From: Eledone cirrhosa
Taxonomy: Eukaryota
NCBI GenBank assembly: GCA_964016885.1
Contig: OZ024751.1
Coordinates: 46,872,001 to 46,936,000, forward strand
DNA: 64,000 nt
Reading direction: 5' to 3'
In this document: positions 4,173 through 62,852 of the stretch, in pieces
How the letters are laid out: every line of letters starts with the position of its first letter
How positions within the stretch are numbered: position 1 is the stretch's first letter
Translations under genes and position numbers: made by a program
The notes under the pieces: model-generated
Seen by the model: only the letters and a program-made list of their open reading frames with translations
Told to the model about the DNA's origin: nothing
Database searches by the model: none

Positions 4173-5039
<867 letters not shown>

Positions 5040-11691: not shown

Positions 11692-11730
11692 CATATATGA
11701 ATCTATGCATGTATATATATATATATATAT

Positions 11731-12235
11731 AAAATAAAGTTAAATAAAAGTCAGATGATTAAAATTTAGCTTCGTTTATTACTGCTATATACATTTCAGT
11801 GACAGCCATCTTTGGCTGTGGTATAGACAAGTACATATGTTGTTTAGGTGTATAATATTGTCAATACTCTGATATGCCCAGTTCCTTGTTGGGTTGTTAA
11901 TTCACTGAGGAACTGGAGTCATATGACTCCAGTTCCTCAGTGAATTAACAACCCAACAAGGAACTGGGCATATCAGAGTATTGACAATATTATACACCTA
12001 AACAACATATGTACTTGTCTATACCATACTAATTCAAACTGCCTGAAGAGGTCACAGCCAAAGATGGCTGTCACTGAAATATATATAGCTATAAACGAAG
12101 CTAAATTTTAATCATTTGACTTTTATTTAACTTTATTTTACACTACTCCGGAGTAACCAAACCAACCTGAGCACTTCGTCGAGTGCTCCAGCCTGCATAC
12201 TGAGGTGTTGGTATACAACCAACATAAACTCAAAA
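11731..12235 (+). mobile_element. Fold-back palindrome (centre 11922/11923) with ~95-nt tail; PLE-type remnant
   Basis: GAGTCATATGACTC centre with ~190/215-bp arms. The left arm lacks a 28-nt segment containing the hammerhead core. Confidence 0.82.
12038..12090 (+). ncRNA. Type-I hammerhead motif
   Basis: ACUGC-CUGAAGA-GGUCACAGCCA(aaga)UGGCUGUCACU-GAAAUAUAUAUA-GC. The left arm preserves the stem I partner GCAGU. Confidence 0.75.
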
Positions 12236-13288: not shown

Positions 13289-13457
13289 TGTATATACATA
13301 TATATATGTATATATGTTAAAATCATATTGTCTGACAAAAGTATAGGTTAACTAAAGTGTTCAAAATAGTCACTGTTAGACGGCTCTACTAACATAGAAT
13401 GTAAGAATTTTCATTTGGAACAGTAGCATCGTATAAATATATATACATACATACATG

Positions 13458-14068
13458 GTGGTGGCTGCCAACTCGTTTTCGAGTACGGCCACTACTTTAT
13501 ATCCATGTAGGAGAACTCCTACCGATGCGCTGAACGAGTGTGACTTTTTAGTCCAGCCAGCGACTTAAAAACTCTGGTACAAACACTACACTTGTGACAA
13601 TTATTGACACATAGTGCTGGGCCCTTGGTACCATGTGACGACAAGTGCAGAGAGATCTCCAGATATAAAGCAATGCCTGTGCCGTGAAGCTTTTATAGTG
13701 AGCAAAGGCACTGCACAAAGCCAGTCCCACTCTCTTAACCAAGATGATATTTACCAAAAAGAAGAACAAGTCAACATCATTGGATACCATCAGGGTTGCA
13801 GGTGTTATATCAGAGTTTTCCTTCTCCTAGAATTCTGCCTTGACAAAGGCTAAGGGGTCATCTCTCCCGGTGATTTTGGATGGCCATTGACTTTCTAAGA
13901 GCTCCTTTGCCCTTTGACAGGTTTTGTTTTTAGTCCTGCAGGATGTCCAAAGTCACCCTCCTCACCAAGAAACCTTGGTGGGGTTGCCAGCTTAGTCGCC
14001 AACGACCCGACCATAGGACAGATTGTACTGGAATACATGTTACCAGTAGCACCAACTGGTGACCTGAC
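13458..14068 (-). mobile_element. Bipartite RTE-derived non-autonomous element (family H), full length
   Basis: ~610 bp. RTE 5'UTR-like TCTAGGAGAAGGAAAACTCTGA joined to an RTE 3' end (C2H2 remnant; CTCGAAAACGAG stem-loop). Flanked by (TATG)n/(TA)n. Confidence 0.82.
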
Positions 14069-14334
14069 ATATATATACATACATATATATATACATACAC
14101 ATATACATACATACATACATATATATATACATACATATATATATATACATACATATACATATACATACATATATATATACATACATATATACATATATAT
14201 GTATATATATACATATATATATATACATATATATATATGTATATATATACATACATACATACATACATACATACATACATACATACATACATACATACAT
14301 ACATACATACATACATACATACATACATACATAC

Positions 14335-16868: not shown

Positions 16869-17351
<483 letters not shown>

Positions 17352-26057: not shown

Positions 26058-26713
26058 ACTGGCTGGACTAAAAAGTCACACTCGTTCAGCGCATCGGTAG
26101 GGGTTCTCCTACATGGATATAAAGTAGTGGCCGTACTCGAAAACAAGTTGGCAGCCACTATGTATGTATGTATTATGTCGGGTCACTCTTGAGTGCTACT
26201 GGCAACATGTAACCCAGTACAACCTGTCGCATGGTCGGGTTGTCGGCGACTAAACCAGAAACCCCACCAAGCTTACTTGGTGAGGAGGGTGATTTTGGAC
26301 AGCCTGCAGGAAAAAAAAAAAAACCTGACAAAGGGCGGAAGAACTCATTAGAGTCAACGGTCATCCGAAAGTGTGTAAATATGTATATATGCATCTACCT
26401 CGCGGTTAAACCACTGGGAGTGAAGGACCCCTAGCCTTTGTCAGGGCATTCTTCTAGGAGAAGGCAACTCAGGAAACTGGGATAACTCCGATATAAAACC
26501 TGCGGCTCAGTAGTTATCGATGATGTTGATCTTTTCTTCTTTTCGGGTTATAGCTACTGTCGCTCAGAGAGTGGGATTGGCTCAGTGTACAGTCTTTCCT
26601 CACTTTAAAAATTATCTTCACGCACAGGCATTGCATCATAGAAATAATTAATAATTATTAATAATGGTATATCGTGCAATGGCCATACTCGATAACGAGG
26701 AGGCAGCCATCAT
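26058..26713 (+). mobile_element. Family H 3' fragment (26058-26161) followed by a diverged subfamily copy (26177-26713)
   Basis: Diverged head GTCGGGTCAC...GGCGACTAAAC and tail GGCCATACTCGATAACGAGGAGGCAGCCATCAT. The same tail occurs at 7236-7278; a related decayed piece lies at ~25390-25570. Confidence 0.72.
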
Positions 26714-26780
26714 GTATGTATGTATGTATGTATGTATGTATGTATGTATGTATGTATGTATGTATGTCATGTATGTTTAT

Positions 26781-27419
26781 GTCAGGTCACCAGTTGGTGC
26801 TACTGGTAACATGTATCCTAGTACAACCTGTCTCATGGTCGGGTCGTTGGCGACTAAACTGGCAACCCCACCAAGGTTTCTTGGTGAGGAGGGTGACTTT
26901 GGACATCCTGCAGGACTAAAAACAAAACCTGTCAAAGGGCAAAGGAGCTCTTAAGAGTCAATGGCCATCCAAAATCACCGGGAGAGATGACCCCTTTAGC
27001 CTTAGTCAAGGCAGAATTCTAGGAGAAGGAAAACTCTGATATAACACCTGCAACCCTGATGGTATCCAATGATGTTGACTTGTTCTTCTTTTTGGTAAAT
27101 AGCATCTTGGTTAAGAGAGTGGGACTGGCTTTGTGCAGTGCCTTTGCTCACTATAAAAGCTTCACGGCACAGGCATTGCTTTATATCTGGAGATCTCTCT
27201 GCACTTGTCCTCACATGGGCCCAGCACTATGTGTCAATGATTGTCCTACCATGGGCCTAGCACTATGTGTCAATGATTGTCACAGGTGTAGTGTTTGTAC
27301 CAGAGGTTTCAAGTCGCTGGCTGGACTAAAAAGTCACACTCGTTCAGCGCTTCGGTAGGGGTTATCATACATGGATGTAAAGTAGTGGCCGTACTCGAAA
27401 ACGAGTTGGCAGCCACCAT
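26781..27419 (+). mobile_element. Family H, full length
   Basis: Near-identical to 62092-62701. Encodes [20 protein letters not shown]; has an internal ~36-bp duplication. Confidence 0.82.
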
Positions 27420-28233
27420 GTATGTATGTATGTATGTATGTATGTATATATGTATGTACGTATGTATGTATTTACGTATGTATATACAACAAGCGTTTGA
27501 AGGCCATTTTCACCATCAAAGCAGGGTTTAGCATTGCGGGTTCAATGTGGGTTCACTTTTAGATGGCCTCTCTTCGGACACATTGGATAATGTGATTTTG
27601 AATGCTTAAGATGGTCACGACTGGAATCACTTTTCAATATGTCTGCCCTATCACCTGTGGCACAAGCAACAACAACAACACACACAGTCACAAGCAAACG
27701 TAAACTTAAAAACAAATGTATTTGATCACACATTTACACGCATACACACGAACACACACGCAAACGCACAGGGCAACAGACACACTAACACAGACACACC
27801 AATTAGATAAGAGACTTCAACAGATTTCAATAGAAATCATAACATTTGGCAGCCATTGTGATGATCACGTGTCAAGGGATATGGAGGGTGAATCAAAGAA
27901 AAGCAGACGACAATACTATCTGTCGGCTGCTCCCGACATATTGTAGATGCTATCTTGTGTGATTGTGTGCGTGAGAGTGTTACTGTGTGTGTGTGTGAGT
28001 TTGTGGTACGGCTTGTGTTTGTTTATGTGTGTGTATGTGTGTTTGTGGTAGGGTTTGTGTGTGAAAGTGTTATATAACAGGCCAAGCAAATCTGTTGCCG
28101 TCACTTTACACATGTCATCTAGCTTGTGTGTTTGAACACGTAAAAACCACACCACATCCACACACCCCCAGCGAGAGACACAGAACATACACTCACGTAT
28201 ATATATGTGTGTGTGTGTGTGTGTGCGTGAGTG

Positions 28234-30664: not shown

Positions 30665-31285
30665 TTTTGCGAGGTTTTTTATATGAAATCGTGTGTCGAA
30701 ACAGATATTGTTATACTTGGGGAGGGTCATATTTGCGTAATATTGCCAGAATTAATAACAGAACACACTCACTGTTTGGTTGGTTTTCGCTTCTCGCTGT
30801 CTTTTATTATATCTGCGATCTAACTTACTCGGTCCTCAATGTTGCCATTGACTGACCGGCGGTCAAAAATAATACAGATACAATATAGACACAAACACAT
30901 ATATATATATATATATATAGTTTACATAATTTACATAAATCTTTCGTTGCACATCTGCAACATCGTCAGTGGTGTTATATTCATTACAACACAACAGGAG
31001 GAACAATGAATATAACACCACCGACGATGTTGCAGATGTGCAACGAAAGATTTATGTAAATTATGTAAACTATATATATATATATATATATGTGTTTGTG
31101 TCTATATTGTATCTGTATTATTTTTGCCCGCCGGTCAGTCAATGGCAACATTGAGGACCGAGTAAGTTAGATCGCAGATATAATAAAAGACAGCGAGAAG
31201 CGAAAACCAACCAAACAGTGAGTGTGTTCTGTTATTAATTCTGGCAATATTACGCAAATATGACCCTCCCCAAGTATAACAATAT
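30661..31285 (-). mobile_element. Fold-back PLE 3'-end remnant related to the adjacent full element
   Basis: Arms 30705-30985 / 31005-31285 with a 19-nt spacer. Shares the terminus ATGACCCTCCC(C/A)AAGTATAACAATAT and tail GAAATCGTGTGT.GAAAC with the PLE at 31321. Confidence 0.85.
30934..30971 (-). ncRNA. Hammerhead-like motif in fold-back element (mirror at 31019-31056 has CCGACGA)
   Basis: CA-CUGACGA-u-GUUGCA(gaug)UGCAAC-GAAAGAUUUA-UG. Same architecture as the PLE motif, but stem I is weak. Confidence 0.65.
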
Positions 31286-31536
31286 ATATATATATTTATA
31301 TATATATATATATATATATATTTCGTTTCTGAATTTGTTTAGCAAGATTCTTTATCTGAAATCGTGTGTTGAAACCGATATTGTTATACTTTGGGAGGGT
31401 CATGTTGCCAATAAGAAACACACGCACCAGTTGCTTTCACTTCAATTTAATTTAATATATATTTATAAATTTACAAATTTATAAATTTCTGGTTGGTTGG
31501 TTGGTTCCACAACCAGATAGTTGTTTATATATATAT

Positions 31537-31581
31537 AGTCATAGTTCTTTCGTCACACACTCTGTGACCTCTTCAGTGACT
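31537..31581 (-). ncRNA. Minimal type-I hammerhead motif (second copy, PLE 3' UTR)
   Basis: Reverse complement of 36243-36287. Confidence 0.8.
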
Positions 31582-31889
31582 GGGGATTTCTTTCTTCGTT
31601 TCTGTGCCTTTCCTTTCTTCTATCCTACGCCATTTTGTTTGTGTGTGGGTTGTGTGCTCAGTTTGCGCATGCGCCACATCCGGGTGTCTGTGTGTGTTTG
31701 TGTTCATTTTTCTATTTTTCTATTTTTATATTTATATTTGTTTGTTTATTTATTTATTTATTTATTGTTGGTTGGTTGTTTGTTCTATGTGTGTGTGTGT
31801 TTTCATTTTGTCTTGTGTGTGTTTTCATTTTGTGTGTGTTTTCAATTGTAAGTTGTTTATATATGTGTGTGTGTGTTTTCATTTTGTCC

Positions 31890-34800
31890 TTAATTGTAAG
31901 TTGTGATGTTGCTGTTCCACTCATATTTTCTATTTAATTTTGGTTTTAATTCTTTTATGCTTACTGCCTCTGTAATTTGCCTAAACATTGTGTCTTTCTT
32001 GTGTGTGGATTCTATTTTTATTTCTATGCTCTCTAATTTACCCCTGTGTTCTATCTTAGCATGTTGGTAGAGCACAGATGATTCTTTACTATCTTGGAGG
32101 TCTCGCCAGTGTTCATTTATTCGTTCCCCTATACTACGAGCTGTCTCACCTATGTACACTATATTTTTGTTTCTACATTGTCCCTCAGTACATCTTATGC
32201 TATATACTACATTTCTAGTTTTACAGTTAATATGGGGGCTTATTTTACAGGTTATACATTTCTTATCTATACATGAGGGTCTTTGGAACGGGTATGTCTT
32301 GCTAATAAGTGTTTTTACGGAGGTACCAGGTCTTTCTACTATCTTAATATTGAGATTATGTTTCTTTAGGGCCCTTCTAAATTTGTAGGCTAGTTCACCT
32401 CTAGGGGTTGTATTGATGAACATTACACTCTGGTATTTATTGCTATCATACCATGAGTTTATTCTATTGGCCTTGTTCTTAGTTCTTTCTATTCTATTCC
32501 AAAATTTGCTCCTATACAAGGGGCAGGTCCCATTTATGTCATTATTTACCATTTTTTCCCATTTGGTTCTGGCTCCTTTATACACTCTGATTCTATCTCT
32601 CTGATTGTAGCCAGAGAACTGCATACGGTGGATGAAGTGTTGTATGTGTCTCTCTAGTTCTTCGGGGTTGCACATGCGGGACACATTTCTCATCACCCGT
32701 ATCAAATCCGCAATCAGTATGTTGATTTTGGTATGGTCCGAAATGGCCGAGTTTCGGTGGATCAGATGTTTGGAAGTCATGGGTTTGGCATAATGGGAAT
32801 GGAGGATTTGTTTTTGGTTGTTAATAGTATCTAACCAGAGCTCTGTGTCTAGTACAGGTAATCGATGGTTGGGGTGTCTACTTGGGTAGTCTATAGTAAC
32901 TCTAATGCTCTGGTGGATGGAGTTTGCTATTTGCTGGATGCTTTCCATTGTGTTTTTCTCAGGTTCCTGACTGTTCTTTAGTGGGGGTGTCTTAACTACG
33001 ATGTTTATATCATCTACGTAGCGGGAGTACATTATCAGGGTTAATCTGTCTTCTAATTGTTCTTTAAGTTTTTGTTTAAGTCTACTGTCCCACCATACCA
33101 TGAACAAGTTAGCTATGTCGCCTGCAATGCTAACACCAATGGCTGCTCCTTCCTCTTGGGCATATGTTTTACCATTAAATTTGAACATATGTTCCTTAAG
33201 GGTTAATTTTATGCTGGCCCCTACCGCATGTGCAATCATTTTCTTCAGTTCATCGTGGTTTTCGGGTGTCCGTATGGCTCTGGTCCACCCGTTCCATCTA
33301 TCTGTGTGGGTTTTCTTGGCCATTGAGGTAATGGTAGGTGGTCTGCCTCTTGCTGGTCTTGTAGGGCACAGGTTGCTAAGGTCATAAGTGTCTAGGTAAC
33401 TATTACTATGGGTAAGCTTAAGTAGAAGTCCCAGCTCACTGGTATCAATCCCACGGAACTCAACCTTGCTCTCGCTGATCATTTCGACGCATTTCTCCAC
33501 AGCAAAATCCACGTCAATAGATGGATACAGGGACACAACATCCATACTGCCTATTATGCAGTTTGTTAGGTCCCCAGATCGGTTACCCGCGTCGATTCTG
33601 CTGAGGAGGTCCTCCGTGCTGTCACACACATCTGGGGACATCTCAATGATGGGGCGTATGATCAGGGAGAGGAAGTAGGACAGTCTGTAGTTACTAGCAA
33701 TGTTAGCCCCACAGACTGGCCGTGTTGGTGGTCCCGCGACAGGGTCCCAGCCCGTTTTATGGTCTTTTCGAAGCCCATACAACGCCGGCACGTCATTGTT
33801 CCAGGCCTGGAAGTTGTTGGCAGTCCTTTTGTTGGGCTGCATTATATTTGTCCACATCACCATATGGGCATTGAGGGTTTTTTCTCTGTCCTCATGCTCC
33901 TGTGGTGTTACCTCTCTTGTGTTAGTGATGTGGGGTTGCATTGCCTGGATGTAGTTTGGCAGGCTGTCAACCGACATTCTGCCAGACTTGTCTGTTGGAA
34001 AGCATGCTATCTCTCCATTACGCGAGCGCTGCATGAGCTTACGCAAGCCATTTGCAGATTCTTCTCCCAGTTGCTGGGCCTCTATTCTATTATGCTTCTT
34101 GCTATACTGTTCTATAATATTTCTAAGTTCGGATTTAGCTATACTAAATTGTGCTTCTGTTTGTTCATCGACCTGCGACGGCAACTGCGTGCGTTTGTTA
34201 AATGGCAAAGTCGTGGCGTGGACTCGTCGTAGGTCGAATGATTTATCGGAGTGGTTATAAAACGGAGAGTTCCAGGCTGCTGCTTTATGTGTACTTGCGC
34301 TATTGTTAGTTGTGTTGTTTCTATTTCCACCAACAGCAGCAGCCTCAGCTTCATGGTTGTTTCTATGTCTCTCATAATTACTCCTGTCTCTTTCCACTGG
34401 CTCAATGTTGTTATCTACCCTATTTTGTGTGTCTGTGTGTTCGTCTTGGTTATTCTCTTTGTCCTTAGTCTCCCTACTCCTTTTAATCCTATTACTTTCT
34501 CTTATTTCTCTGATTTCTGTGCTACTGTCATTACTTGTTTTCTGTGTCTGTGTGTTTGTTAAGATTGTAGTGGTGGTGAGAGGCATTGAATGTGTGTGTG
34601 TTGTTGTTGTTGATGTGTGTTGTTGTTGATGTGTGTTGTTGTCTCCGTGTGTGTGTGTGTTATCGTTGTTGTGTGTGTTGTTATTGTTGTTTGTGTTTGC
34701 GTGTCTGTTGTTGTTGTATCTGGGTATGTTGCTGTTGTTGTTGTTGTTGATGTGTGTGTTGTTGTTATTGTTGTCTCCGTGTGTGTTGTTATTGTTGTTT

Positions 34801-35276
34801 GTGTCTGCGTGTCTGTTGTATCTGGGTATGTTGCTATTGTTGGTATTGTATCTGGGTATGTTGCTATTGTTGTTGTTATTGTTTGTGTCTGTGTGTCTGT
34901 TGTTGTTGGGATGTGTGTTGTATATGTGTGTGCGTATATTGTTGCTTTTGTTTTTGTTTTTGATGCTCCAGCGTAGTTTCGTAAATGATTTTTCTATTTC
35001 TGACAGACAACTAATCATATTTACCTTCTTGAATGTCGCAAATTTGGGTGGCAAACGTAACACAGACATTTCATTATTATCTATTTTCGTGTTTCCATAA
35101 ATGTTGGTATTTTTATTGTTGAACTCTTCAGATAATGAGGTGTCGGCCATGTTGATACCGTCAATTTTGTCGGGATATCTATTGGTATACTCTATAGTAT
35201 CCCGATTTAGCTTTGCCTGTTTAAGCCACTTTAATTTTCTGTTAAAGTGCTTATTACATTCTTGAGTAATGTACAT
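31890..35276 (-). CDS. PLE reverse transcriptase + GIY-YIG endonuclease polyprotein (1128 aa from MYITQ; N-terminus truncated)
   Basis: Motifs PTDKSG, LYGLRKDHK, TRPVCG, SMDVVSLYPSID, QEEGAAIG, RYVDDI, LPVLDT, Cys linker CIDKKCITC, VVYSIRC...YIGET...RINEH...QH, KPKLN. The first ~45 aa of the 1173-aa track ORF are antisense of the inverted repeat and not part of the protein. Confidence 0.92.
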   Translation of the reverse strand: MYITQECNKHFNRKLKWLKQAKLNRDTIEYTNRYPDKIDGINMADTSLSEEFNNKNTNIYGNTKIDNNEMSVLRLPPKFATFKKVNMISCLSEIEKSFTKLRWSIKNKNKSNNIRTHIYNTHPNNNRHTDTNNNNNNSNIPRYNTNNSNIPRYNRHADTNNNNNTHGDNNNNNTHINNNNNSNIPRYNNNRHANTNNNNNTHNNDNTHTHGDNNTHQQQHTSTTTTHTHSMPLTTTTILTNTQTQKTSNDSSTEIREIRESNRIKRSRETKDKENNQDEHTDTQNRVDNNIEPVERDRSNYERHRNNHEAEAAAVGGNRNNTTNNSASTHKAAAWNSPFYNHSDKSFDLRRVHATTLPFNKRTQLPSQVDEQTEAQFSIAKSELRNIIEQYSKKHNRIEAQQLGEESANGLRKLMQRSRNGEIACFPTDKSGRMSVDSLPNYIQAMQPHITNTREVTPQEHEDREKTLNAHMVMWTNIMQPNKRTANNFQAWNNDVPALYGLRKDHKTGWDPVAGPPTRPVCGANIASNYRLSYFLSLIIRPIIEMSPDVCDSTEDLLSRIDAGNRSGDLTNCIIGSMDVVSLYPSIDVDFAVEKCVEMISESKVEFRGIDTSELGLLLKLTHSNSYLDTYDLSNLCPTRPARGRPPTITSMAKKTHTDRWNGWTRAIRTPENHDELKKMIAHAVGASIKLTLKEHMFKFNGKTYAQEEGAAIGVSIAGDIANLFMVWWDSRLKQKLKEQLEDRLTLIMYSRYVDDINIVVKTPPLKNSQEPEKNTMESIQQIANSIHQSIRVTIDYPSRHPNHRLPVLDTELWLDTINNQKQILHSHYAKPMTSKHLIHRNSAISDHTKINILIADLIRVMRNVSRMCNPEELERHIQHFIHRMQFSGYNQRDRIRVYKGARTKWEKMVNNDINGTCPLYRSKFWNRIERTKNKANRINSWYDSNKYQSVMFINTTPRGELAYKFRRALKKHNLNIKIVERPGTSVKTLISKTYPFQRPSCIDKKCITCKISPHINCKTRNVVYSIRCTEGQCRNKNIVYIGETARSIGERINEHWRDLQDSKESSVLYQHAKIEHRGKLESIEIKIESTHKKDTMFRQITEAVSIKELKPKLNRKYEWNSNITTYN

Positions 35277-35934
35277 TACTAATGACATAAATGGGACCTG
35301 CCCCTTGTATAGGAGCAAATTTTGGAATAGAATAGAAAGAACTAAGAACAAGGCCAATAGAATAAACTCATGGTATGATAGCAATAAATACCAGAGTGTA
35401 ATGTTCATCAATACAACCCCTAGAGGTGAACTAGCCTACAAATTTAGAAGGGCCCTAAAGAAACATAATCTCAATATTAAGATAGTAGAAAGACCTGGTA
35501 CCTCCGTAAAAACACTTATTAGCAAGACATACCCGTTCCAAAGACCCTCATGTATAGATAAGAAATGTATAACCTGTAAAATAAGCCCCCATATTAACTG
35601 TAAAACTAGAAATGTAGTATATAGCATAAGATGTACTGAGGGACAATGTAGAAACAAAAATATAGTGTACATAGGTGAGACAGCTCGTAGTATAGGGGAA
35701 CGAATAAATGAACACTGGCGAGACCTCCAAGATAGTAAAGAATCATCTGTGCTCTACCAACATGCTAAGATAGAACACAGGGGTAAATTAGAGAGCATAG
35801 AAATAAAAATAGAATCCACACACAAGAAAGACGCAATGTTTAGGCAAATTACAGAGGCAGTAAGCATAAAAGAATTAAAACCAAAATTAAATAGAAAATA
35901 TGAGTGGAACAGCAACATCACAACTTACAATTAA
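35269..35934 (+). pseudogene. Duplicated GIY-YIG endonuclease-only ORF (221 aa) in the inverted repeat
   Basis: Matches the polyprotein C-terminus except T>A. Its ATG lies in the junction palindrome. Confidence 0.75.
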
Positions 35935-36438
35935 GGACAAAATGAAAACACACACACACATATATAAACAACTTACAATTGAAAACACACACAAAATGAA
36001 AACACACACAAGACAAAATGAAAACACACACACACATAGAACAAACAACCAACCAACAATAAATAAATAAATAAATAAACAAACAAATATAAATATAAAA
36101 ATAGAAAAATAGAAAAATGAACACAAACACACACAGACACCCGGATGTGGCGCATGCGCAAACTGAGCACACAACCCACACACAAACAAAATGGCGTAGG
36201 ATAGAAGAAAGGAAAGGCACAGAAACGAAGAAAGAAATCCCCAGTCACTGAAGAGGTCACAGAGTGTGTGACGAAAGAACTATGACTATATATATATAAA
36301 CAACTATCTGGTTGTGGAACCAACCAACCAACCAGAAATTTATAAATTTGTAAATTTATAAATATATATTAAATTAAATTGAAGTGAAAGCAACTGGTGC
36401 GTGTGTTTCTTATTGGCAACATGACCCTCCCAAAGTAT

Positions 36439-36446
<8 letters not shown>
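35280..36446 (+). repeat. Inverted copy (1167 bp) of the PLE 3' end (pseudo-LTR)
   Basis: Reverse complement of 31378-32544. The one difference I noticed is at 35833 vs 31991 (KKDAMF vs KKDTMF). Confidence 0.95.
36243..36287 (+). ncRNA. Minimal type-I hammerhead ribozyme motif (PLE pLTR)
   Basis: AGUCA-CUGAAGA-g-GUCACA(gagug)UGUGAC-GAA-AG(aa)CU-A-UGACU: stem I AGUCA/UGACU, stem II, 2-bp stem III, CUA cleavage triplet. Confidence 0.8.
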
Positions 36447-36532
<86 letters not shown>

Positions 36533-38654: not shown

Positions 38655-38660
<6 letters not shown>

Positions 38661-39076
38661 AATAAGAGGAATTCCAACTTTGTCTGATTTACTCGTTTTA
38701 TTTACAATCCTTTAAAATTTATAATGGTATTATAATGAAATAGTATGATAGAATATTAAATGTTAAGTGTTAATTGAACAAGTACTTTCATGCTTTCGCA
38801 ATCTTCAGGTTCATAATGTGTGGTGACAGTCAAGTTTGCAATTTTCAACAGTTGAAAATTGCAAACTTGACTGTCACCACACATTATGAACCTGAAGATT
38901 GCGAAAGCATGAAAGTACTTGTTCAATTAACACTTAACATTTAATATTCTATCATACTATTTCATTATAATACCATTATAAATTTTAAAGGATTGTAAAT
39001 AAAACGAGTAAATCAGACAAAGTTGGAATTCCTCTTATTAATATAATCTTCTATACACAATCATATACACCCGTGT

Positions 39077-39389: not shown

Positions 39390-39395
<6 letters not shown>

Positions 39396-39638
39396 TGTAA
39401 TAAACAACATAAGATAATTAATTCATTTACCAAAGGTTTCACGAAGACAGACGAGCTTGACACTTACATCTGCCTTCAATCATCGGAAAGAAGAATAAAT
39501 TCCTTCTGATGATTGAAGACAGACGTAAGTGTCAAGCTCGTCTGTCTTCGTGAAACCTTTGGTAAATGAATTAATTATCTTATGTTGTTTATTACATAAC
39601 TAAAAAGCTCTGTAGCTTACATAGACTTTACTTTTCCT
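39390..39638 (+). mobile_element. Fold-back palindrome (~100-bp arms) with ~36-nt tail; PLE-type remnant
   Basis: Inverted repeat 39390-~39490 / ~39501-39602, in (TA)n. Confidence 0.82.
39498..39572 (+). ncRNA. Type-I hammerhead ribozyme motif
   Basis: AAUUCCUU-CUGAUGA-uu-GAAGACAGACG(13 nt)CGUCUGUCUUC-gu-GAA-ACC(uuu)GGU-A-AAUGAAUU. The mirror arm has CCGAUGA. Confidence 0.85.
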
Positions 39639-56976: not shown

Positions 56977-57112
56977 TTTCTATTCGTCTTTCTATAATAT
57001 ACAGCATTTCTTTTTATTATCGTACCCACTATGTATGTATGTATGTATGTATGTATGTATGTATGTATGTATGTATGTATGTATGTATGTATGTATGTAT
57101 GTATGTATGTAT

Positions 57113-57661
57113 GTCTCATGGTCGGGTCGTTGGCGACTAAACTGGCAACCCCACCAAGGCTTCTTGGTGAGGAGGGTGACTTTGGACATCCTGCAGGACT
57201 AAAAACAAAACCTGTCAAAGGGCAAAGGTGCTCTTAAGAGTCAATGGCCATCCAACATTACCGGGAGAGATGACCCCTTATCCTTTGTCAAGGCAGAATT
57301 CTAGGAGAAGGAAAACTCTGATATAACACCTGCAACTCTGATGGTATCCAATGATGTTGACTTGTTCTTCTTTTTGGTAAATATCATCTTGGTTAAGAGA
57401 GTGGGACTGGCTTTGTGCAGTGCTTTTGCTCACTATAAAAGCTTCACGGCACAGGCATTGCTTTATATCTGGAGATCTCTCTGCACTTGTCATCACATGG
57501 TACCATGGGCCCAGCACTATGTGTCAATATTTGTCACAAGTGTAGTGTTTGTACCAGAGTTTTCAAGTTGCTGGCTGGAGTAAAAAGTCACACTCGTTCA
57601 GCGCATCGGTAGGGGTTCTCCTAAAGTAGTGGCCGTACTCGAAAACGAGTTGGCAGCCACC

Positions 57662-57663
<2 letters not shown>
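57113..57663 (+). mobile_element. Family H, 5'-truncated
   Basis: Homology to the other copies; (TATG)n on both sides. Confidence 0.8.
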
Positions 57664-57694
<31 letters not shown>

Positions 57695-58449
57695 TGTATG
57701 TATGTATGTATGTATGTGTATGTATGTATGTATATATGTATGTATGTATAAATCTATGTATGTATATATGTAGTAAGTATGTATTTATGTATGTATATAT
57801 GTATGTATGTATGTATAAAAAACGCAGTACAGTGCAGATATATATTAGTTTAACGCTTCATATAGTGAGAAAAGAGTCTTTACGTTTCGAACACTTGTCT
57901 TTCATCAGAAGAATGAAAAATAAAAGACGAAATAGAGAGGATATATTGAGAAGAAGATGGAACGGAAAATATAATTGCGGGGAAAAAGCACGTGTGCATT
58001 CAGTCAGCCTTTTGGAGAAAAAAGTATGTCTTAAGAGTATATACCATGCTTTAACCTAGGGTTATAGGTATCCATGTAGTCGTGGGCAGATACAATCACC
58101 CTCCCAAGATGTCCTCCTTCCCTCGGTACTGTGGGTCATCCAGGATGTAACAGTTGGTAGGAAAGAAGGTTTCACCAGACCCTAGTGTTGGTGTTTACCT
58201 TATTGACCCCTAAGGGATGAAAGGTAAAGTGGACCACGACAGGATTTCAACTGAAAATTCAGGGACCCGGAACAACTATCCAACGCCCTAACGACTGCCT
58301 GAATATATATATATACGTGTGTGTGGGGGTGGGTGGGAGGTGGGGGTGCATGCATGTATACACACACATATACAAACATACATACACACACGCATGCATT
58401 TACAAAGACTCACACATATATATACATAGATACATGTATATATGTATGC

Positions 58450-58736
<287 letters not shown>

Positions 58737-58741
58737 CATAC

Positions 58742-58831
<90 letters not shown>

Positions 58832-58835
<4 letters not shown>

Positions 58836-59288
58836 TGGCTGCCAACTCGTTTTCGAGTACGGCCACTACTTTATATCCATATAGGAGAACCCCTACCGAT
58901 GCGCCGAACGGGTGTGACTTTTTAGTCCAGCCAGCGACTTGAAAACTCTGGAACAAACACTACACTTGTGACAATTATTGACACATAGTGCTGGGCCCAT
59001 GGTACCATGTGACGACAAGTGCAGAGAGATCTCCAGATATAAAGCAATGCCAGTGCCGTGAAGCTTTTATAGTGAGCAAAGGCACTGCACAAAGCCAGTC
59101 CCACTCTCTTAACCAAGATGATATTTACCAAAAAGAAGAACAAGTCAACATCATTGGATACCATCAGAGTCGCAGGTGTTATATCAGAGTTTTCCTTCTC
59201 CTAGAATTCTGCCTTGACAAAGGCTAAGGGGTCATCTCTCCCGGTGATTTTGGATGGCCATTGACTCTTAAGAGCTCCTTTGCCCTTT
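58832..59288 (-). mobile_element. Family H, 5'-truncated
   Basis: Homology to 13458-13915. Confidence 0.8.
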
Positions 59289-61349: not shown

Positions 61350-61382
<33 letters not shown>

Positions 61383-61387
<5 letters not shown>

Positions 61388-61806
61388 CGAAACTGCGAGT
61401 GGGTTTGAAATTATTAGAAATGTAAGCTATCGTCGTATTTGGACTAAAGAAATTAAAGAAATTATTTAGCCTGATAGTGGGGTTAAGAACCCTCGGAGAA
61501 ATGGAAAAAGATGAATATTGACGTACATGGGAGTCGAACCCACATCTTTGGTTATCCTGACCACTGTGATACCATTTACACCAACTCATATCCGGACCAC
61601 TGTGCTACCATTTACACCAACACATCATGTGTTGGTATAAATGATATCAAAGTGGTCAGGATAACCAAAGATGTGGGTTCGATTCCCATGTACGTCAATA
61701 TTCATCTTTTTCCATTTCTCCGAGGGTTCTTAACCCCACTATCAGGCTAAATAATTTCTTTAATTTCTTTAGTCCAAATACGGCGATAGCTTACATTTCT
61801 AATAAT
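61383..61806 (-). mobile_element. tRNA-headed fold-back palindromic element (centre 61626) with ~27-nt tail
   Basis: Arms ~61410-61625 / 61627-61806 in (TA)n. The left arm has a ~36-nt internal duplication. Confidence 0.8.
61626..61697 (+). pseudogene. tRNA-like cloverleaf (SINE head; not a functional tRNA)
   Basis: Consensus of both arms: GATGTGT TG GTGT AAATGGTA GCAC A GTGGT CAGGATA ACCAA AGAT GTGGG TTCGA(C/T)T CCCAT GTACGTC A. A and B boxes present; anticodon loop lacks U33. Confidence 0.7.
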
Positions 61807-61822
61807 ATATATATATATATGA

Positions 61823-61857
<35 letters not shown>

Positions 61858-62091
61858 TATATATATGTATTCATATATATATATATATATTATATATATA
61901 TATATACATACATATATATATATATATTTTATATATATATATATATATTATATTATATTATATCATATATATATATATATATATATACGTATATATATAT
62001 TATATTATATATATATACACACATACGTATATATATGTACTATATATATACTATGCATATACGTGTATGTATATATATATATATATATTAT

Positions 62092-62852
<761 letters not shown>

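Follow-up and report, generated by a model that had tools for sequence, protein, structure and literature searches.

A dispersed tRNA-headed repeat of Eledone cirrhosa as a candidate passenger of Penelope-like elements

A palindromic insertion with tRNA-like arms

The window analyzed here, a stretch of 64,000 nucleotides from the cephalopod Eledone cirrhosa, holds at 61381..61806 a single insertion of a dispersed mobile-element family. Its tailed arm (61381..61589, minus strand) covers positions 2-210 of the family's repeat unit, comprising the tRNA-like part, trailer, body and tail, and matches the unit of subfamily A at 96.7%. The untailed arm (61627..61806, plus strand) covers positions 2-181, matches the unit at 95.6% and finishes at the second of two preferred outer ends. 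As inverted repeats, the arms (61410-61589 and 61627-61806) are 180 nt each, 97% complementary and separated by 37 nt, while a one-sided extension of about 27-29 nt (61381..61409, minus strand; unit 182-210) forms a tail lying between the two preferred outer ends. Here the tail falls a little short, as the arm ends at about unit 209-210 against a family norm of 212-222. The insertion sits between a (TA)n tract on the left (61353..61383) and a TA-rich tract on the right (61805..62088), has no poly(A), and a target-site duplication is not distinguishable between such tracts. A first-pass annotation of this sequence had described the inverted arms, the one-sided tail of about 27 nt, the TA flanks and a symmetry centered on 61626, the first acceptor-stem base read on the minus strand and thus tRNA +1; all of these hold on measurement, the symmetry being a local one.

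Both long arms begin at tRNA position 2, and positions 2-72 are tRNA-like in each (61519..61589, minus strand, in the tailed arm; 61627..61697, plus strand, in the untailed arm). In the tailed arm this part contains an A at position 58 and motifs resembling A and B boxes. The 3' strand of its T-stem (unit 59-64; 61527..61532, minus strand) is the family's main reverse transcriptase (RT) stop, which was passed in this copy. The T5 run reported previously starts 10 nt past the tRNA part, within the trailer that pairs with the leader (unit 82-86; 61505..61509 on the minus strand and 61707..61711 on the plus strand of the untailed arm), and is the sole run of four or more T in the subfamily A unit.

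The previously proposed 72-nt cloverleaf is supported by the Rfam tRNA model, which scores 35.4 bits (gathering threshold 29) at 61626-61519 on the minus strand, but no contiguous cloverleaf starts at 61626. Instead, the minus arm contains a second copy of tRNA positions 1-38 (61589..61626, minus strand, 100% to unit 1-38) as a tandem 36-nt duplication, which the Rfam alignment accommodates within the anticodon loop. Since this piece interrupts the cloverleaf from 61626, ARAGORN called no tRNA over the whole window. Likewise, the D stem GTGT/GCAC exists, although it is confined to the extra piece. The extra piece has consensus bases at positions 22 and 33, where both long arms have private variants in common, and therefore it was likely derived from a second RNA via a template switch.

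The window also contains a young autonomous Penelope-like element (PLE) spanning 31322-36493, with a minimal hammerhead in its pseudo-LTR and an inverted partial copy. Its open frame of 1181 aa (31890..35435, minus strand) encodes RT and GIY-YIG domains, and it is treated below as a candidate helper only. Searched whole against Pfam, this ORF matched no family at 1e-3; searched in parts, it matched RVT_1 (E 2.4e-4, below that family's cut-off) and GIY-YIG (above cut-off), and a PDB search returned only a weak GIY-YIG match (E 0.18). The ORF has PLE-type Atlas neighbors and a CxxC motif before the GIY-YIG domain, and it is Neptune/Nematis-like by the description in the available text of PMC8557442. 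Genome-wide, the family to which it belongs is represented by 7955 matches to its tail and by at least 150 near-identical matches to its protein.

Several other TA-flanked palindromes with one-sided tails are present in the window (30705-31285, 38655-39045, 39390-39602, 4208-4625, 16869-17213 and 11730-12140), the first three of which contain hammerhead-like cores. The palindrome at 30705-31285 has an end motif in common with the window PLE, and that at 38655-39045 matches the 3' end of a GIY-YIG element in locus L339. A dispersed repeat of 500-900 nt also lies beside TA tracts in both orientations (57112-59288, 62140-62734, 13432-14321 and 26712-27486).

A family of tandem units with a shared cloverleaf

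The locus is not single-copy. Exact-match searches of the 3.0-Gb genome found 514 head and 593 tail matches for subfamily A, 1138 tail matches for subfamily B and 38 for the older subfamily C, while reversed-pattern controls found none. Allowing for divergence, we estimate several thousand copies in total. Identity to consensus has a median of 97.9% for A arms and is about 96% in B and 80-90% in C, and the three consensuses are 65-89% identical to one another, with the cloverleaf kept throughout.

The repeat unit, a monomer arranged head to tail, measures 271 nt in A, 260 nt in B and about 280 nt in C. The A length derives from 7 head-to-head matches, some of which are one array fetched twice, and the C junction is the least certain of the three; observed head-to-tail spacing is 262-272 nt. 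Counted from tRNA +1, the unit runs through the cloverleaf (1-72), the trailer (73-91, with T5 at 82-86), the body and the leader (251-271), and T5 lies immediately past the tRNA part in all three subfamilies. The initial picture of a SINE-like head, body and tail is not upheld, as the unit is a tandem monomer, about 50 nt of which lie past the insertion's 3' terminus.

Full-length matches to the Rfam tRNA model score 28-47 bits, above gathering in A and in some C copies, and the cloverleaf stems are 92.9% paired over 28 distinct copies. The changes are chiefly one-sided, of the G-C/G-U kind, and two-sided covariation is not significant, with 97 of 500 shuffles matching the score. Position 58 is A in subfamilies A and B, where the A- and B-box-like motifs fit the presumed consensus, and T in C. 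The anticodon loop also differs, reading GGA in A and TGA in C, with C or A at 33 and T at 37. This non-canonical loop, together with an ARAGORN assignment to Ser in the absence of a long variable arm, led us to reject a functional tRNA gene. Searches for a parent tRNA returned 3 matches to a degenerate D-arm pattern, all of them older family members, and 16 matches to RF00005, none aligning well, among the 63 of 552091 candidates scored.

Both strands of A and C unit dimers were given a relaxed scan, which found no hammerhead core while detecting the motif of the window PLE as a control, and no ribozyme family, hammerhead included, was among the Rfam matches at E<=1 in 8 loci. An antisense CTGATAG...GAAA-like stretch was considered as a hammerhead and rejected, as it does not form a hammerhead core and is not conserved in C.

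Insertions have the anatomy of Penelope-like elements

The subfamily A sample consists of 90 insertions, drawn from 94 of the first 100 tail places listed (89 loci on C1-C2) after one duplicate locus was dropped and two neighboring copies were added. The A and B samples are both first-listed places on C1-C2 and not random, and the A sample is tail-anchored, so that presence of the tail is forced while ending just beyond it is not. Counts exclude the other 6 A tail places, L065 (the same insertion as L064), L150 (not tail-anchored), five B loci that are neighbors' insertions (L300, L302, L303, L317 and L319) and clusters with fewer than 60 aligned nt.

Inverted two-armed structures account for 65 of the 90 A insertions (72%) and 15 of 25 in B, the remaining 25 A insertions being one-armed and 5'-truncated. 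Outer ends are concentrated at two places: among 155 in A, 81 fall at unit 212-222 and 53 at 155-183, with 24 at 179-181. Arms are offset by 35-39 nt in 22 of 60 pairs and mostly by 40-55 nt in the rest. A (TA)4 tract occurs within 16 nt of the tailed end in 75 of 88 cases (8-13% in background), and with TA tracts on both flanks no target-site duplication can be called in A insertions. None of the 88 tailed A ends has poly(A), or an A-rich or simple-repeat tail of its own. Arms crossing a unit junction number 31 of 155, and one arm (L097) covers three units. Inner ends, on the other hand, are variable, and A insertions have no internal region between direct repeats.

Overall, the family shows the partial tandems, inverted 5'-truncated copy, one-sided tail and TA targets without poly(A) that characterize non-autonomous PLEs; the available text of PMC8557442 describes PLEs as having partial tandems, an inverted 5'-truncated copy, a one-sided tail of 30-40 bp and a bias towards microsatellites. 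The window PLE itself has two outer ends 56 nt apart, TA flanks and a hammerhead cut 220 nt upstream of its outermost end, and tRNA +1 lies 216-220 nt upstream of the equivalent outer end of the element described here. The non-LINE, PLE-type insertion signature suspected in the first-pass annotation is thus borne out by TA targets, lack of poly(A), inversions and two outer ends, with no A-rich, LINE-type tail in the sampled A insertions. On this sequence evidence, mobilization by PLE-type machinery is highly probable, irrespective of what the tRNA-like part does.

Two explanations that dispense with a PLE appear very improbable to us. An ordinary LINE-dependent tRNA SINE, whose palindromes and tandems were produced later by twin priming or DNA rearrangement, would account for the tRNA-like part with its A- and B-box-like motifs, and LINE twin priming does produce inversions. 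However, such a SINE does not readily fit the absence of an A-rich or simple-repeat tail, the second fixed outer end, a unit that goes on some 50 nt past the insertion end or the inversion of 65 of 90 copies. Moreover, both arms cover the same unit sequence, and LINE twin priming is not known to yield arms overlapping the same sequence. A similarly low probability attaches to a DNA-level element with no RNA stage, either of fold-back/MITE type or a rolling-circle satellite. Palindromic and tandem forms and TA flanks could be expected of such an element. However, with variable inner ends and two different fixed outer ends, copies do not terminate in matching inverted repeats, and 25 of the 90 consist of one 5'-truncated arm. 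Where truncation occurs is tied to features of the tRNA and to A58 (see below), and the RT-encoding PLE of the window has the same anatomy.

Arms of a palindrome suggest two priming sites

It had been proposed that the palindrome formed when an RT folded back at the end of its template. Of 60 pairs, 27 have an untailed arm that extends beyond its partner in the 5' direction, 13 have a longer tailed arm and 20 are equal. One folded cDNA could never give a longer untailed arm, and we therefore reject simple fold-back of a single cDNA as the general mechanism. Private variants are common to the two arms of one insertion at 0.0052 per site, compared to 0.0007 in random pairs (7x), so both arms derive from one RNA or one source. 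Tandem units within one insertion share private variants at 0.006 per site, no more than arms do. We infer, as the simplest reading of these data, that cDNA synthesis was primed from each side of the cut, using the two sites, and that the products were then joined through microhomology.

Inner ends cluster at the T-stem and near tRNA +1

Inner ends, where copying stops, are not random with respect to the tRNA-like part. The major hotspot in A is the 3' strand of the T-stem (59-64), at which 45 of the 109 arms reaching it end, while a minor one occurs in the +1 region, where 20 of 51 arms end and 31 read through to the preceding unit. The clusters at -4 and +1 together represent about 9x the per-base stop rate of the tRNA body, and 16 of the 133 A arms crossing region 73-130 end there. 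Consequently, the expectation that fold points pile up at +1 is met by this minor hotspot, with the main peak at the T-stem, but folding at +1 is not a general rule: of 65 A inversions, 5 have both arms within 5 nt of +1 and 11 have them at the T-stem CATG, and none of 40 B inner ends lies near +1, though at least 13 B arms pass it.

Comparison of the subfamilies connects the T-stem stop to a single base. The B inner ends include 16 of 40 at 59-66, whereas those of C, which were read by hand from older copies (80-90% identity) and are less precise, include 2 of 47 at 59-66, 5 near +1 and 6 in the anticodon arm. T-stem ends number 48/155 in A, 16/40 in B and 2/47 in C (Fisher p 7.5e-5 for C vs A and 4.0e-5 for C vs B). 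C retains the T-stem and its CATG and differs by T at 58, so the T-stem stop tracks the T-loop base A58. Since the pile-up in A and B is absent in C, where A58 is lost, these data suggest a tRNA-like fold for the element RNA, which may also undergo tRNA-like modification. Microhomology at CATG was considered as the sole cause of the hotspot and rejected, given that C has CATG without a pile-up; among the other 4-bp palindromes, which lie in the body and are reached first, none is used more than once in 65 inversions.

Two properties of A58 could underlie this dependence, as the methylated base m1A58 blocks reverse transcriptases and the T54-A58 pair helps shape the tRNA elbow. No m1A58 misincorporation signature was found in A read-through copies, in which A58 is changed in 2 of 136 compared to a median of 1.2%. 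In addition, T-stem ends fall 4-12 nt 3' of A58 and not on it, and a reading based on m1A58 must therefore assume trimming to microhomology.

Ends in the anticodon arm (27-38) are found in 6 of 47 cases in C (L244-L273) and 1 of 155 in A (Fisher p 7e-4). The template switch in the window copy likewise falls at position 38.

5' ends and the possible role of the tRNA-like part

Among 94 A heads, 11 start at -4 (one or two of them doubtful), 15 at -1/+1/+2, and 48 run cleanly into the leader. As judged from these positions, a Pol III start near -4 plus trimming may account for both 5'-end clusters, a scheme that would allow RNase P cleavage and not require it. The leader (251-271) pairs with the trailer (73-91) in a duplex of -19.4 kcal/mol in A, better than all of 500 shuffles; the C duplex (-15.2 kcal/mol) is exceeded by some shuffles.

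These features invite an alternative in which a PLE still mobilizes the element and the tRNA-like part serves mainly for processing. Here, cleavage by RNase P at every +1 would split multi-unit transcripts into monomers, each kept as a nicked circle by its leader-trailer stem. A circular template would result from ligation, with the tRNA in place of the hammerhead. The predicted unit-length fold sets position 271 beside position 1 in a continuous helix with a 3-nt bulge, and 6 of 7 changes that distinguish the subfamilies within stems preserve pairing. Reading through +1 by 31 of 51 A arms and at least 13 B arms, the continuation of 48 of 94 heads into the leader, the three-unit arm of L097 and the 15 of 94 heads ending at -1/+1/+2 would all be expected from it, as would the lack of a hammerhead core in A and C unit dimers and of an Rfam ribozyme in 8 loci, and non-LTR retrozymes form circRNAs, according to the available text of PMC7761336. 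Conversely, the 11 heads at -4, one or two of which are doubtful, retain uncut leader, the +1 ends may arise by trimming, the sharing of variants between tandem units (0.006 per site) fits circles and linear multimers alike, and covariation is not significant. Hammerhead cleavage was also dispensable to one PLE in vitro, as far as the available text of PMC11167929 goes. We therefore give this processing role a low probability. The same tentative standing applies to its fullest form, in which the tRNA mimic would be a Pol III promoter, its RNase P-cut nicked-circle monomers would be ligated to circular PLE templates, and A58 would be methylated. If this doubtful form were nevertheless correct, the element might represent a third class of small-RNA-headed passenger beside SINEs and TRIMp3, a ribozyme-free retrozyme whose RT stops would constitute a genome-wide fossil record.

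At the other extreme, the tRNA part could be a mere passenger within a PLE-mobilized unit, transcribed by Pol II read-through from host or neighboring promoters, with the RT pausing at stems. The T5 run right after the tRNA part in three subfamilies, the spread of C with a broken B box, the absence of +1 ends among 40 in B and the non-significant covariation are consistent with this explanation, which we nonetheless consider unlikely, and somewhat more so than a processing role. In particular, the -4 and +1 clusters of A (20 of 51 arms stopping, about 9x the tRNA-body rate) require a defined RNA end, the T-stem stop follows the loop base A58 while A, B and C have the same stem sequence, and the cloverleaf is maintained across subfamilies that are 65-89% identical.

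Search for a helper element

The first-pass annotation suggested that PLEs ending in the element's tail motif might exist; none was found in the window PLE, in 914 kb of loci taken from the genome or in 20 GIY-YIG 3' regions. The element has no sequence similarity to the window PLE, an HMM search for helper similarity found nothing in the 914 kb, and there was nothing significant in the 20 GIY-YIG 3' regions, which represent about 7 families (of 150 listed, from 10596 candidates).

A model for a PLE-driven passenger

We propose that the element is a candidate PLE-driven passenger in which the tRNA-like part acts as a promoter and as a T-arm stall, and we assign this full model a probability of roughly 0.7. 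Under this proposal, a non-coding tandem unit of 260-280 nt, present at well over a thousand (TA)n sites, likely depends on a Penelope-like RT/GIY-YIG protein for its copying in trans, and the tRNA part is likely a Pol III promoter and folded 5' module in place of the retrozyme hammerhead. The outer-end clusters at 212-222 and 155-183 would mark the two places where synthesis is primed internally on the tRNA-sense RNA, each being used on one side of a double-strand cut. The RT would then stall at the tRNA-like T-arm, due either to m1A58 or to an intact or protein-bound elbow, or would run off the RNA 5' end, probably about 4 nt upstream of +1. Next, two cDNAs would be trimmed to microhomology (CATG, TG/AT) and joined to form the palindrome, or a single cDNA would join the flank. 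Finally, because copying would start inside the unit, positions 221-271 could be inherited only from templates of more than one unit or from circles; such templates, presumably T5 read-through transcripts or circles, would restore the last 50 nt, and the restored units would yield new source copies.

The promoter role is the part of this model that calls for most care. A T5 run ten nt past the tRNA part is expected to stop much Pol III transcription before the priming sites, and since C amplified despite having T where the B box should have A58, Pol III may not be required. T5 and the broken B box of C therefore urge caution on the promoter role. By analogy, a Pol III promoter in a small passenger would have precedent in Cassandra and SM-alpha. 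Also weighing against the model, the hammerhead does not dominate the 5' ends of the helper-type PLE either, about 3 of 30 loci of that PLE ending within 10 nt of the cut.

Relation to known elements

The element behaves as a non-autonomous PLE or non-LTR retrozyme that lacks both the hammerhead of a retrozyme and the tail of a SINE. As described in the available text of PMC7761336 and bioRxiv 10.64898/2026.07.22.740005, metazoan non-LTR retrozymes are likewise non-coding tandem units of about 150-300 bp, a range into which units of 271, 260 and about 280 nt fall, and like the element they are highly self-paired, have no LTR, PBS or PPT and are proposed to use PLE machinery. They are, however, defined by a type I hammerhead in each unit, where the element has a tRNA cloverleaf and no hammerhead was found. 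The preprint, which links retrozymes to PLEs (bioRxiv 10.64898/2026.07.22.740005), has no occurrence of "tRNA" in its main text.

Among PLEs and their non-autonomous derivatives, Chlamys/MRC1 have partial tandems, an inversion, a tail and AT-rich or (TA)n targets in common with the element (available text of PMC8557442). In Anolis Poseidon PAc, as the available text of PMC11167929 reports, both strands are cut and extended, and two internal RT starts bound the tail, as proposed for the element. Conversely, non-autonomous Chlamys generally share the 3' end of their helper, whereas the element shares none with the PLEs examined; it also has no ORF, unlike endonuclease-bearing PLEs, and a tRNA module is not described for Chlamys or PAc in the available text of those sources. 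The schistosome SM-alpha/Sj-alpha elements are, per the available part of a review (PMC6765202), short tandem SINE-like units, apparently transcribed by Pol III, with an upstream unit driving the next. Their monomers are freed by a hammerhead, which the element lacks, and the accessible review text does not describe PLE-type tail and inversion anatomy for them.

The TRIMp3 elements Cassandra, Helenus and Ajax resemble the element in being LINE-independent, non-autonomous retroelements with a small-RNA-derived Pol III module inside a terminal or repeat unit, and transcripts of Cassandra extend from 5S copy to 5S copy (PMC10886601, available text). They are LTR-type (PBS, PPT, TSD) while the anatomy of the element is PLE-type, and Helenus and Ajax, according to the same text, lose the RNA fold while the element's cloverleaf still scores as a tRNA. 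Membership in TRIMp3 (Helenus-type) was rejected, as there are no two LTRs, inner ends are variable and there is no internal region. SINE2 elements, as defined in general use and in the available text of PMC5786205, are similar in being short, dispersed and non-coding with a tRNA part that carries A/B-box-like motifs, whereas the element has no LINE-derived or A-rich tail, a circularly permuted tandem unit, internal priming and 72% inversion. SINE2 membership was also rejected, as sampled A insertions have neither a LINE-type tail nor LINE-type insertion. Ordinary tRNA-derived SINEs use LINE enzymes.

Our search of publications found no tRNA-headed, ribozyme-free PLE passenger. As far as the available text of each source extends, a cephalopod repeat annotation leaves SINE families unclassified by the hundreds (PMC13282606), and work on butterflies makes passing mention of short non-autonomous Penelope elements (PMC6685494). 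The family may thus already be deposited in a repeat library such as Repbase or Dfam, unnamed, as an unclassified SINE.

Described PLE passengers are hammerhead retrozymes or truncated derivatives, and small-RNA passengers of LINE and LTR elements are already known. If our model is right, a hammerhead is not essential to a PLE passenger, a point relevant to the purpose of the PLE hammerhead itself, and PLE biochemistry would gain a template of 270 nt whose start and stop sites are mapped. Inequality between arms is evidence from the genome in favor of two-ended priming, and because subfamilies differ at A58, host tRNA processing of a retroelement RNA can be tested directly. At a practical level, copies such as these inflate annotations of tRNA genes and SINEs.

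Other tRNA-containing repeats were encountered during these searches. Loci L276 and L278-L286 contain a repeat that is unrelated to the family and exceeds 1.8 kb. It has a fixed palindromic left end at TA and an internal tRNA of 53-72 bits, the anticodon of which varies by copy (GGC, GAC, AGC, GGT and GTC), and resembles a DNA-transposon-type element with a tRNA gene inside. Finally, L275 and L277 have 5-7 tRNA-Thr-type genes clustered within 3 kb.
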